Sequence record: NC_000866.4
Direction: 5' to 3' (one strand)
Length of the DNA: 64,000 bases
Source of the DNA: Escherichia phage T4
A program made the position numbers and the translations under genes. Positions 36,632 to 50,689 of the stretch are shown in pieces. A model generated the notes under the pieces. It made no database searches and was not told the DNA's origin. It saw only the letters and a list, made by a program, of their open reading frames with translations. Numbering within the stretch: the stretch's first letter is position 1; the number at the start of each line of letters is the position of its first letter.

Positions 36632-37123
36632 ATGTTTGTAGATGATGTAACACGAGCGTTTGAATCTGGTGATTTTGCTCGACCTAACTTATTCCAAGTA
36701 GAAATTTCTTATCTTGGACAAAATTTTACGTTCCAATGTAAAGCTACTGCTCTACCAGCTGGTATTGTAGAAAAAATTCCAGTCGGATTTATGAACCGTA
36801 AAATTAACGTAGCAGGCGATCGTACATTCGATGACTGGACTGTTACAGTAATGAACGATGAAGCTCATGATGCTCGTCAGAAGTTCGTTGATTGGCAAAG
36901 CATTGCTGCGGGGCAAGGAAACGAAATTACTGGTGGAAAACCTGCAGAGTATAAAAAGAGCGCTATCGTTCGTCAATATGCTCGTGACGCTAAAACAGTA
37001 ACAAAAGAAATTGAAATTAAAGGTCTGTGGCCTACTAACGTGGGTGAACTTCAATTAGATTGGGATTCAAACAATGAAATCCAAACTTTTGAAGTAACTC
37101 TTGCTCTCGATTATTGGGAATAA
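36632..37123 (+). CDS. 19: tail tube protein gp19
   Basis: 163-aa ORF. Confidence 0.95.
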   Translation: MFVDDVTRAFESGDFARPNLFQVEISYLGQNFTFQCKATALPAGIVEKIPVGFMNRKINVAGDRTFDDWTVTVMNDEAHDARQKFVDWQSIAAGQGNEITGGKPAEYKKSAIVRQYARDAKTVTKEIEIKGLWPTNVGELQLDWDSNNEIQTFEVTLALDYWE

Positions 37124-37155: not shown

Positions 37156-38780
<1,625 letters not shown>

Positions 38781-38781
<1 letters not shown>

Positions 38782-39023
38782 TGGAAGGTTTAATTGAAGC
38801 TATTAAATCAAACGACCTCGTAGCCGCTCGTAAATTATTTGCTGAAGCCATGGCTGCAAGAACGATTGATTTAATTAAAGAAGAAAAAATCGCTATCGCT
38901 CGCAATTTCTTAATCGAAGGTGAAGAACCTGAAGACGAGGATGAAGATGAAGATGACGAAGATAGTGATGATAAAGACGACAAAAAAGACGAAGACTCTG
39001 ACGAAGACGAGGATGATGAATAA
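38781..39023 (+). CDS. 67: prohead core protein gp67
   Basis: 80-aa ORF with an extremely acidic C-terminal tail ([32 protein letters not shown]). Confidence 0.8.
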
Positions 39024-39448
39024 TGCTTCTGATCCCTGAAACTCATGAATTAGTTCTCGAGAATGTCGAAGCACTTATTCCTGAAGCACAGGGTCGCTTT
39101 GACGAATTGTCTTCTGCTTTAAATAAAGACGATATAAATACAATTGTCGAGAATATGCTTGATGATGAAACTGATTTAGCGGTTGCATTAGCTTCTATTA
39201 ATGAAAATATGCCGTTAAATGAATTCATCGTTAAACATGTTTCTGCCCGTGGTGAAATTACTCGCACTAAAGACCGCAAAACGCGTGAACGAAATGCATT
39301 TCAAACCACTGGGCTGTCTAAAGCAAAACGTAGACAAATTGCTCGTAAAGCTACCAAAACGAAGATTGCCAATCCAGCAGGTCAATCTCGTGCTCAGCGT
39401 AAGCGTAAAAAAGCTCTTAAACGCCGTAAAGCATTAGGATTAAGCTAA
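39023..39448 (+). CDS. 68: prohead core protein gp68
   Basis: 141-aa ORF with basic C-terminus, coupled to 67 and 21. Confidence 0.8.
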
Positions 39449-40086
39449 TGAATGAACCCCAATTACTAATTGAAACTTGGGGTCAACCTGGCGAAATTAT
39501 TGATGGCGTACCAATGCTTGAATCTCATGATGGAAAAGACTTAGGTTTAAAACCGGGTTTATACATCGAAGGAATATTCATGCAAGCGGAAGTCGTCAAT
39601 AGAAATAAACGTCTTTATCCAAAACGTATATTAGAAAAAGCGGTAAAAGACTATATTAATGAGCAAGTTTTAACTAAACAAGCTCTCGGAGAATTAAATC
39701 ATCCTCCACGCGCTAATGTTGACCCGATGCAAGCCGCTATCATTATAGAAGATATGTGGTGGAAAGGAAATGACGTATACGGACGAGCTCGTGTTATTGA
39801 AGGTGACCATGGTCCTGGAGATAAATTAGCAGCTAATATTCGTGCCGGATGGATTCCAGGAGTTTCTTCTCGTGGATTAGGTTCATTGACTGACACAAAT
39901 GAAGGTTATCGTATCGTAAACGAAGGATTCAAATTAACTGTAGGTGTTGATGCAGTATGGGGTCCAAGTGCTCCAGATGCATGGGTAACTCCTAAGGAAA
40001 TTACCGAATCACAGACGGCGGAAGCCGATACAAGTGCCGATGACGCCTATATGGCTCTCGCAGAGGCCATGAAAAAAGCGTTATAA
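39448..40086 (+). CDS. 21: prohead core protease gp21
   Basis: 212-aa ORF. Confidence 0.9.
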   Translation: MNEPQLLIETWGQPGEIIDGVPMLESHDGKDLGLKPGLYIEGIFMQAEVVNRNKRLYPKRILEKAVKDYINEQVLTKQALGELNHPPRANVDPMQAAIIIEDMWWKGNDVYGRARVIEGDHGPGDKLAANIRAGWIPGVSSRGLGSLTDTNEGYRIVNEGFKLTVGVDAVWGPSAPDAWVTPKEITESQTAEADTSADDAYMALAEAMKKAL

Positions 40087-40089
40087 ATA
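40082..40089 (+). promoter_or_regulatory. late promoter TATAAATA for gene 22
   Basis: exact TATAAATA overlapping the gene 21 stop, 28 nt upstream of the gene 22 ATG. Confidence 0.65.
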
Positions 40090-40116: not shown

Positions 40117-40926
40117 ATGCTTAAAGAACAACTGATTGCCGAAGCGCAGAAAATTGATGCTTCCGTTGCTCTTGATAGTATTTTCGAATCAGTTAATATT
40201 TCTCCGGAAGCAAAAGAAACTTTCGGCACTGTATTCGAAGCTACCGTCAAGCAGCACGCCGTTAAATTAGCTGAATCTCATATCGCTAAAATTGCTGAAA
40301 AAGCAGAAGAAGAAGTAGAAAAAAATAAAGAAGAAGCCGAAGAAAAAGCTGAGAAGAAAATCGCTGAGCAAGCTTCTAAATTCATTGACCATCTTGCAAA
40401 AGAATGGCTCGCTGAAAATAAATTAGCAGTTGATAAAGGCATCAAAGCCGAACTGTTTGAATCCATGCTTGGTGGATTAAAAGAGCTCTTTGTTGAACAC
40501 AACGTTGTTGTTCCAGAAGAATCAGTTGATGTTGTAGCTGAAATGGAAGAAGAGCTGCAAGAACATAAAGAAGAATCGCCTCGTCTGTTCGAAGAACTGA
40601 ATATGCGCGACGCATATATCAATTATGTGCAGCGTGAAGTGGCATTGAGCGAAAGTACTAAAGATCTGACTGAGTCTCAAAAAGAAAAAGTCTCTGCTCT
40701 GGTCGAAGGTATGGATTATTCAGATGCATTCTCAAGTAAATTGAGTGCAATCGTAGAAATGGTGAAGAAATCTAATAAAGATGAAAGCACTATTACTGAG
40801 AGTATAAATACTCCTGATACTGAAGCAGCCGGACTGAATTTCGTCACTGAAGCTGTAGAAGATAAAGCTGCACAGGGTGCAGAAGATATTGTAAGTGTAT
40901 ATGCGAAAGTCGCATCTCGTTTCTAA
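40117..40926 (+). CDS. 22: prohead core scaffold protein gp22
   Basis: 269-aa acidic coiled-coil ORF. Confidence 0.9.
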   Translation: MLKEQLIAEAQKIDASVALDSIFESVNISPEAKETFGTVFEATVKQHAVKLAESHIAKIAEKAEEEVEKNKEEAEEKAEKKIAEQASKFIDHLAKEWLAENKLAVDKGIKAELFESMLGGLKELFVEHNVVVPEESVDVVAEMEEELQEHKEESPRLFEELNMRDAYINYVQREVALSESTKDLTESQKEKVSALVEGMDYSDAFSSKLSAIVEMVKKSNKDESTITESINTPDTEAAGLNFVTEAVEDKAAQGAEDIVSVYAKVASRF

Positions 40927-40944: not shown

Positions 40945-42510
40945 ATGACTATCAAAACTAAAGCTGAACTTTTGAACAAATGGAAGCCATTACTGGAAGG
41001 TGAAGGTTTACCGGAAATTGCTAATAGCAAACAAGCGATTATCGCTAAAATCTTTGAAAACCAGGAAAAAGATTTCCAGACAGCTCCGGAATATAAAGAC
41101 GAAAAAATTGCTCAGGCATTCGGTTCTTTCTTAACAGAAGCTGAAATCGGTGGTGACCACGGTTACAATGCTACCAACATCGCTGCAGGTCAGACTTCTG
41201 GCGCAGTAACTCAGATTGGCCCAGCTGTTATGGGTATGGTACGTCGTGCTATTCCTAACCTGATTGCTTTCGATATTTGTGGTGTTCAGCCGATGAACAG
41301 CCCGACTGGCCAGGTATTCGCACTGCGCGCAGTATATGGTAAAGACCCAGTGGCTGCCGGTGCTAAAGAAGCATTCCACCCAATGTATGGTCCAGATGCA
41401 ATGTTCTCTGGTCAGGGTGCTGCTAAGAAATTCCCAGCTCTGGCTGCTAGCACACAAACCACAGTAGGTGATATCTATACTCACTTCTTCCAGGAAACTG
41501 GTACTGTATATCTGCAAGCTTCTGTTCAAGTAACAATCGATGCTGGTGCGACTGATGCTGCTAAATTAGATGCTGAAATTAAGAAACAAATGGAAGCTGG
41601 TGCACTGGTAGAAATCGCTGAAGGTATGGCTACTTCTATCGCTGAACTCCAGGAAGGTTTCAATGGTTCTACCGATAACCCATGGAATGAAATGGGCTTC
41701 CGTATCGATAAGCAAGTTATCGAAGCTAAATCTCGTCAGCTGAAAGCTGCTTACTCTATTGAATTAGCACAAGACCTCCGCGCTGTTCACGGTATGGATG
41801 CTGATGCTGAACTGTCTGGTATTCTGGCTACAGAAATTATGCTGGAAATCAACCGTGAAGTTGTTGATTGGATTAACTACTCAGCTCAGGTTGGTAAATC
41901 TGGTATGACCCTGACTCCGGGTTCTAAAGCTGGTGTATTTGACTTCCAGGACCCAATTGATATTCGTGGTGCTCGCTGGGCGGGTGAATCCTTTAAAGCT
42001 CTGTTGTTCCAGATTGACAAAGAAGCAGTTGAAATTGCTCGTCAGACCGGTCGTGGTGAAGGTAACTTCATTATCGCTTCCCGTAACGTAGTTAACGTTT
42101 TGGCTTCAGTTGATACCGGCATTTCTTATGCTGCACAGGGTCTGGCTACCGGCTTTAGCACTGATACTACCAAGTCAGTATTTGCTGGTGTTCTGGGTGG
42201 TAAATACCGCGTATATATCGACCAGTATGCTAAACAGGATTATTTCACTGTAGGTTATAAAGGTCCGAACGAAATGGATGCTGGTATTTACTATGCTCCA
42301 TATGTAGCTCTGACTCCGCTGCGTGGTTCCGATCCGAAGAACTTCCAACCGGTAATGGGATTCAAAACTCGTTACGGTATCGGTATCAACCCATTTGCAG
42401 AATCCGCTGCTCAGGCTCCGGCTTCTCGCATCCAGAGCGGTATGCCTTCTATTCTGAATAGCCTTGGTAAAAACGCTTACTTTAGACGTGTATATGTTAA
42501 AGGTATCTAA
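40945..42510 (+). CDS. 23: major capsid protein gp23
   Basis: 521-aa ORF; high GC and codon bias typical of a highly expressed gene. Confidence 0.97.
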   Translation: MTIKTKAELLNKWKPLLEGEGLPEIANSKQAIIAKIFENQEKDFQTAPEYKDEKIAQAFGSFLTEAEIGGDHGYNATNIAAGQTSGAVTQIGPAVMGMVRRAIPNLIAFDICGVQPMNSPTGQVFALRAVYGKDPVAAGAKEAFHPMYGPDAMFSGQGAAKKFPALAASTQTTVGDIYTHFFQETGTVYLQASVQVTIDAGATDAAKLDAEIKKQMEAGALVEIAEGMATSIAELQEGFNGSTDNPWNEMGFRIDKQVIEAKSRQLKAAYSIELAQDLRAVHGMDADAELSGILATEIMLEINREVVDWINYSAQVGKSGMTLTPGSKAGVFDFQDPIDIRGARWAGESFKALLFQIDKEAVEIARQTGRGEGNFIIASRNVVNVLASVDTGISYAAQGLATGFSTDTTKSVFAGVLGGKYRVYIDQYAKQDYFTVGYKGPNEMDAGIYYAPYVALTPLRGSDPKNFQPVMGFKTRYGIGINPFAESAAQAPASRIQSGMPSILNSLGKNAYFRRVYVKGI

Positions 42511-50663: not shown

Positions 50664-50689
50664 GATTGTCTCCTCTGAATTATATCTAT

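Follow-up and report, generated by a model that had tools for sequence, protein, structure and literature searches.

Gene 67 of the Escherichia phage T4 and its acidic product have been annotated and described since the early 1980s and are a textbook component of this phage. T-even phages have been known since the 1950s to contain an acidic internal peptide, and the sequence of gene 67 itself was reportedly determined by Völker et al. (1982), a reference listed in PMC1079782. The name PIP stands for "precursor of internal peptide", and the Asp/Glu/Lys-rich, acid-soluble peptide of T-even heads that derives from gp67 is what we take to be internal peptide II. The gp67 protein has been listed as cleaved and essential, with 341 copies in the prohead and 139, as a 3.9 kDa fragment, in the mature head (PMC9026906, Table 1). 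Cleavage by the prohead protease gp21 takes place after the Glu of the motif L/I-x-E (PMC9026906). Mutants in gp67 and gp68 give isometric heads, and isometric cyanomyoviruses are devoid of both genes (PMC1079782). The nearest counterpart within the same phage is gp22, also an acidic core protein that gp21 cuts at L/I-x-E sites and from which a charged low-complexity fragment is kept in the head. Unlike gp67, gp22 is 269 aa long and contains many cleavage sites, and its fragment is internal, a mixture of E and K with a net charge of -4 and likely helical, whereas that of gp67 is C-terminal, nearly pure D/E, with a net charge of -24 and predicted to be disordered. Residues 62-84 of gp22, KAEEEVEKNKEEAEEKAEKKIAE (40300..40368), form a segment of 23 aa and 2,689 Da with IAE motifs on both sides, which is likely to be the 2.5 kDa piece of gp22 that persists in mature heads according to PMC9026906. 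Another group of acidic proteins that invites comparison is that of T7 Ocr, ArdA and T4 Arn, which, like the C-terminal tail of gp67, are dense in Asp/Glu, phage-encoded and present early enough to meet host DNA-binding proteins; these proteins are folded and their carboxylates copy the geometry of B-DNA. Finally, HMGB1 and the nucleoplasmin-type histone chaperones carry a D/E run on a folded domain, act through its charge on basic partners and vary its length by codon slippage, although there is no homology with the gp67 tail and the likeness is one of functional analogy only. As for the function of the acidic gp67 peptide retained in the head, no explanation was found in the accessible literature, which consists mainly of reviews giving copy numbers. 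The descriptive additions made here are a survey of tail length and a survey of junction conservation in gp67.

The window, that is, the whole stretch of 64,000 nucleotides of the T4 record NC_000866.4 that was analysed, contains gene 67 (pip) as an ATG-initiated open reading frame (ORF) on the + strand at 38781..39023, stop codon included, coding for the 80-aa prohead core protein gp67. A 1-kb query around this gene matched 790 phage records by megablast and was 100% identical to T4T (HM137666), KJ477684, MT984581 and other T4 records. Subtracting 63,979 from a T4T position gives the window position, and gene 67 is thus T4T 102760..103002, with 100% identity and the annotation "67, prohead core protein, gp67; pip". 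The protein matches the Pfam family PF17634 (GP67) with an E value of 1.8e-48 and 163.2 bits (cut-off 27) over residues 1-80 of 80, and PHROG 1064 ("prohead") with an E value of 1.7e-30, and its UniRef name is "Prehead core component PIP". The genomic context agrees with the T4T annotation of the matching stretch, which reads 20 (portal), 67, 68, 21, 21', 22 and 23. In the window the gene order is 18-19-20-67-68-21-22-23, with gene 67 lying between the portal gene 20 and the core genes 68/21/22 on the same strand and with ORF sizes of 659 aa for gp18, 163 for gp19, 80 for gp67, 141 for gp68, 212 for gp21, 269 for gp22 and 521 for gp23. No evidence contradicting the identification was found, and in sequence, position and full-length profile match the locus does not differ from the described gp67/PIP (PF17634, PHROG 1064). 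The first-pass annotation, in which the gene had been recognized as that of the prohead core protein, is therefore borne out by the identity to T4 records and the full-length Pfam match. The range given there, 38781..39046, takes in gene 67 from its first base and extends as far as the start codon of an antisense ORF, while gene 67 ends at 39023. We consider that the feature is, with a probability of about 0.9, T4 gene 67 (pip), coding for a prohead core (scaffold) protein made of a helical domain and a polyanionic tail joined by a protease site.

Several minor features of the neighbourhood can be mentioned. Genes 20/67 (38781), 67/68 (39023) and 68/21 (39448) each overlap by one base, with stop/start junctions of the TAATG type, an arrangement that points to coupled translation of the core genes. 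The start of gene 20 is TTG at 37195 (528 aa) in the mechanical ORF list and an ATG 12 nt downstream, at 37207, in T4T (524 aa). Late-promoter motifs of the form TATAAATA are found on the + strand at 37171, at 39133..39140 (inside gene 68) and at 40082..40089 (the end of gene 21, upstream of gene 22). There are 22 such motifs in the window versus 10.4 expected, and of those located between 13349 and 48028 all but one are on the + strand.

The gp67 protein can be divided into two modules. In an AlphaFold2 model, built from a shallow alignment of near-identical sequences and reaching a pTM of only 0.37, helices span residues 2-9 and 13-46 with pLDDT values of 80-92, and residues 47-80 are coil with pLDDT values of 52-66. 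No solved structure of gp67 or of any relative was found. The N-terminal module therefore comprises residues 1-46 (38781..38918, + strand), with the two predicted helices, and the tail that follows is predicted to be disordered. A motif scan for L/I-x-E returned three matches in gp67, LIE ending at residue 6, IKE ending at residue 34 and LIE ending at residue 46. The last of them lies in the junction LIE|GEE (residues 44-49; 38910..38927, + strand), where the cut would fall after E46, and the helical domain ends precisely at E46, the last residue of the motif match. From the published specificity of gp21 we infer that gp67 is cleaved after E46. The computed masses are 3,992.5 Da for the 34-aa fragment 47-80 and 4,458 Da for the fragment 7-46, and the tail 47-80 is the best candidate for the retained gp67 fragment because its mass fits the published 3.9 kDa, 3,992 Da being close to this value, not identical. 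In fact, gp67 is annotated as "precursor to internal peptides" in several relatives. On the basis of mass, composition and annotation, the tail is taken here to be the classical acidic internal peptide II. It is a defined module whose boundary with the helical domain is a motif conserved in position, a point that had been missed in the earlier annotation.

The tail itself (residues 47-80; 38919..39020, + strand) contains 27 D/E and 3 K and has a net charge of -24. The nearly pure E/D end that had been described for the 80-aa product is exactly the quoted string, residues 49-80, in which 26 of the 32 positions are D/E; the binomial probability of at least 26/32 is 4.4e-18, given that D+E make up 13.1% of the ORF background. 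Among all ORFs of at least 60 aa in the 64-kb window, the 32-aa segment that comes second in acidity has 14 D/E. By its composition the tail is thus a low-complexity acidic segment, as had been proposed. Its codons are GAA (9), GAC (8), GAT (8), GAG (2) and AAA (3), together with four singletons, and its DNA is 76% purine on the + strand. The earlier description of the encoding DNA as GAA/GAT/GAC repeats holds for codon usage and fails as regards a clean tandem repeat, since Tandem Repeats Finder detects only imperfect GAN-codon repeats at 38930..38963 (+ strand), in the form of weak period-6 and period-9 arrays with 75-80% matches. The scores of these arrays, 40 and 31, are below the default of 50, which speaks against a true tandem repeat, although a 9-nt duplication of slippage type occurs in relatives. 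The tail DNA would thus show cryptic simplicity at the codon level more than a regular tandem repeat.

Distant relatives were collected without using the tail. In a tblastn search against phage records the low-complexity tail was masked, so that residues 1-47 alone account for the 950 records matched. The T4 locus was compared with 14 loci from other genera (15 in all): Mosigvirus RB69, Mosugukvirus PM2, Kanagawavirus IME523 and PEi26, Dhakavirus IME08, Tegunavirus phiR1-RT, a Karamvirus, two Biquartavirus, a Lazarusvirus, a Zedzedvirus, a Gualtarvirus and two unclassified phages. Gene 67 lies between genes 20 and 68 in all 14, where the identity of the N-terminal domain to that of T4 is 46-62%. 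A junction of the form [IVMT]-x-E|GE occupies residues 44-48, the same position, in 15/15 aligned genera, and it is followed by D/E/K-rich tails of 20-47 aa, with 15-28 D/E and net charges from -11 to -24, whose sequences cannot be aligned. Likewise, a phmmer search with residues 1-46 only against 1.84 billion representatives returned 8 proteins, too few for a deep profile. Six of the eight are intact, more divergent orthologues, in all of which the EGE junction is followed by 19-40 aa of acidic tail. Of the other two, P0049 is of Tequatrovirus type, with a 98% identical N-terminal domain, and is also present among the 509 homologues considered below, and P0121 is a chimera in which residues 1-33 of gp67 are fused to unrelated sequence. 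Judged from these alignments, the acidic tail and its boundary are universal features of the gp67 family, recovered without the tail as bait, and what is conserved in the tails is charge and rough length, not sequence. The conserved module boundary consists of a helix, an E|GE protease site and a tail that is free in sequence and constrained in charge. Some database labels of these proteins are misleading: mislabelled gp67 copies (among P0005, P0047, P0053, P0105, P0121 and H31) appear as "Enterococcus faecalis hypothetical protein", and others as "long tail fiber distal subunit [phage HY03]" or "guanine nucleotide-binding protein subunit alpha". In addition, the gp67 N-terminal domain in a record entitled "Pseudomonas phage vB_PSGBLB0006" is identical to that of T4.

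Among close relatives, studied in the best 120 of 509 gp67 homologues, the two modules evolve in different ways. In the 46-aa N-terminal domain, 119 of these 120 proteins show 0-3 substitutions and keep the length unchanged (22 distinct N-terminal domains), and the same 120 carry 81 distinct tails, of 30-39 aa with the exception of one of 25 aa in a partial sequence. The homologue alignment reveals a tail core conserved within Tequatrovirus, SDDKDDKKD (residues 62-70; 38964..38990, + strand), which is present in 98 of the 120 and replaced by near variants in the rest. Length changes are concentrated in two hot spots flanking this core. The first, which coincides with the imperfect GAN-codon repeats described above, measures 8-14 residues in 113 close homologues, and the second (38991..39020, + strand, from the DNA alignment) measures 10 or 13 residues in 105 of the 113. 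At the DNA level, alignment of six Tequatrovirus sequences showed indels of 3, 6 and 9 nt in the tail only, those of 3 and 6 nt being in the first hot spot. The 9-nt change is a duplication in the second hot spot, where TGACGAAGA occurs once in T4 versus twice in tandem in SP1, SHFML-11 and G50. This tandem duplication is a slippage signature. Megablast matches that span 1,004 or 998 bases of the records against the 1,001 bases of the query are also consistent with the same changes of +/-3 nt. Therefore, the comparison of tail length across related phages that the first-pass annotation had called for reveals tails lengthened and shortened by in-frame indels among close relatives. Mechanistically, since runs of GAN codons encode the tail, its length would be altered by in-frame slippage during replication.

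The variability of the tail could mean that it is a neutral low-complexity appendage, produced by slippage, without function and tolerated since gp21 removes it anyway. The 81 tail variants found in the 120 near-identical proteins that were the best of the 509 homologues, the slippage signature in the DNA and the lack of sequence conservation between genera all fit this explanation, which would nevertheless predict the loss of the tail or a randomised composition in some lineage. On the contrary, an acidic tail is present in 15/15 genera and in the 6 representatives retrieved with a query devoid of it, the net charge is always -11 or more negative and the length 19-47 aa, the E|GE junction does not vary, none of the indels breaks the frame and the tail has been lost in no homologue. 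A functionless appendage is consequently very unlikely. Selection would rather keep the charge and the approximate length of the tail, and not its sequence.

A role in the prohead core can be proposed for both modules of this essential core protein of 9.1 kDa. Residues 1-46 would assemble together with gp22, gp68, gp21 and the internal proteins to give the scaffolding core that supports the building of the prolate shell. Within the core the tail would act electrostatically, keeping the helical module soluble and spaced, and might pair with basic core components such as the C-terminal half of gp68 (+23) and the basic internal proteins. Once the shell is assembled, gp21 would cut gp67 after residues 6 and 46, and possibly after residue 34, freeing the tail as an Asp/Glu/Lys peptide of about 3.9 kDa, of which about 40% of the copies stay in the DNA-filled head; proteolysis would then dissolve the core. 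We infer that an electrostatic role in the core is the most likely one for the gp67 tail. The product of the adjacent gene 68 (39023..39448) is charge-bipolar, with a net charge of -14 in residues 1-70 and of +23 in residues 71-141, where 26 of the 71 residues are K/R. Its basic half has a net charge of +20 to +24 in 15/15 genera, so that neighbouring genes encode one core protein with an acidic tail and one with a basic tail. The charge of the gp67 tail (-11 to -24) does not covary with that of the C-terminal half of gp68 (+20 to +24) across the 15 genera (Spearman -0.19, p 0.5), in a test that has little power since the gp68 charge is almost constant. Three further ORFs in the window start with the capsid-targeting-type sequence MKT[YF][QK]EF, at 1718, 2415 and 9878 (-), with 100, 193 and 95 aa and net charges of +4, +9 and +2; they are presumably IPII, IPIII and IPI, respectively, basic cargo of the same prohead core.

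The first-pass annotation had suggested that the tail could mimic DNA inside the prohead. The tail would then stand in for DNA in the prohead, where until packaging it could occupy the surfaces by which the basic internal proteins or the inner shell bind DNA, or else serve after injection as a decoy for host DNA-binding defence proteins. The tail is certainly strongly and universally anionic, and part of it stays in the mature head beside basic internal proteins, the IPIII-, IPII- and IPI-like precursors having net charges of +9, +4 and +2. However, 341 copies with a charge of -24 amount to about 8,200 charges versus about 340,000 phosphates in a genome of about 170 kb, and because the tails account for about 2% of the DNA charge, bulk replacement of DNA by them is ruled out. 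The structural comparison also argues against mimicry. Ocr, ArdA and Arn are folded, and Ocr and ArdA present rigid carboxylates at B-DNA spacing; the gp67 tail, unlike them, is a low-complexity segment of 34 aa with predicted disorder (pLDDT 52-66) and neither its sequence nor its K interruptions are conserved. To this must be added the lack of covariation with the basic tail of gp68, in the low-power test mentioned above, and the fact that the accessible literature, mainly reviews, yielded no experiment on mimicry and likewise no binding partner. DNA mimicry is on the whole very unlikely; bulk mimicry by the gp67 tail is implausible, and a local role as decoy or chaperone toward basic proteins has a low probability.

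The fate of the retained peptides after infection deserves a separate comment. A T-even acid-soluble peptide has been reported to enter the cell with the DNA. The excised peptide might be more than scaffold debris: the approximately 139 copies retained per head could be injected with the DNA and work inside the host cell as a polyanionic decoy or chaperone, for instance by keeping the basic internal proteins away from the DNA up to ejection or by titrating a defence factor of the host that binds DNA. We regard such an activity in the host as quite improbable. If it were true, the rapid variation in tail length would reflect host-driven selection and not neutral slippage.

The antisense strand of gene 67 offers a different type of problem. 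A Ser-rich ORF of 104 aa with an ATG start was indeed found at 38732..39046 (- strand), as the first-pass annotation had described, and it contains 36 Ser, 29 of them within the first 45 residues. Its frame is such that each antisense codon pairs with the third base of sense codon n-1 and the first two bases of sense codon n. In this frame any GAN codon reads TCN (Ser), which holds for 35 of the 35 D/E codons of gp67, and the Lys codons AAR read TTN (Phe/Leu). An antisense stop requires a sense codon beginning with TA or CA (Tyr, His, Gln) after a codon ending in a pyrimidine, and gp67 has no Tyr, His or Gln. Therefore, both the open antisense frame and its Ser run follow from the reading of GAN as TCN and from the absence of these three amino acids. 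A real overlapping gene might be argued from the ATG start and the 104 codons, from the absence of stops in this frame over 47-100% of gene 67 in 14/14 other genera, and from the silence of the gp67 D/E exchanges in it. A dN/dS-type test was discarded as biased in favour of the artefact, because these exchanges fall at third positions and are silent there. The openness and the Ser run are imposed by the code. Moreover, the start is not conserved: apart from T4, an ATG upstream of the Ser run is present only in Shark_ER15 and VIPECLUMC02 (far upstream in the latter), that is, in 2 of the 14 other genera, and of the remaining 12 genera 7 have no ATG in the antisense frame and in the other 5 an ATG occurs only downstream of the Ser run. 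The 104-aa product has no match in Pfam or PHROG, and the ORF carries no annotation in T4T. The late-promoter motif TATAAATA is absent from the minus strand between 13364 and 50687, so that over 11 kb separate the ORF from the nearest one upstream, at 50687. Nor was a sigma-70-like site found upstream of the ORF, the only one on the minus strand being downstream of its start. Antisense ORFs of at least 100 aa are also common locally, with three others within 5 kb (36752..37054, 40278..40622 and 41131..41529). Consequently, the chance that the antisense ORF is a gene is practically negligible; it is an artefact of the genetic code, a by-product of the sense codons, as the first-pass annotation had held.

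The same DNA run produces other spurious frames. Because of the 76% purine run, multiple frames are open across the T4 tail, including all three antisense ones (49, 105 and 54 codons). A second antisense ORF of 54 aa, F/I/V-rich, is found at 38910..39074 (- strand) and corresponds to the codon-aligned reverse of the GAN run, in which GAA, GAT and GAC become TTC, ATC and GTC, that is, F, I and V. An alternative + frame ORF of 39 aa, rich in K/M/T, at 38920..39039, derives from the same purine-rich run; both are artefacts. In practical terms, long Ser-rich ORFs opposite D/E runs are predictable products of the code (GAN to TCN with a one-base offset) that should be filtered out of ORF lists. Another example is probably the 114-aa Ser-rich antisense ORF at 40278..40622 (- strand), which faces the stretch of gene 22 that encodes its acidic, E-rich part and would arise from the same GAN-to-TCN effect.
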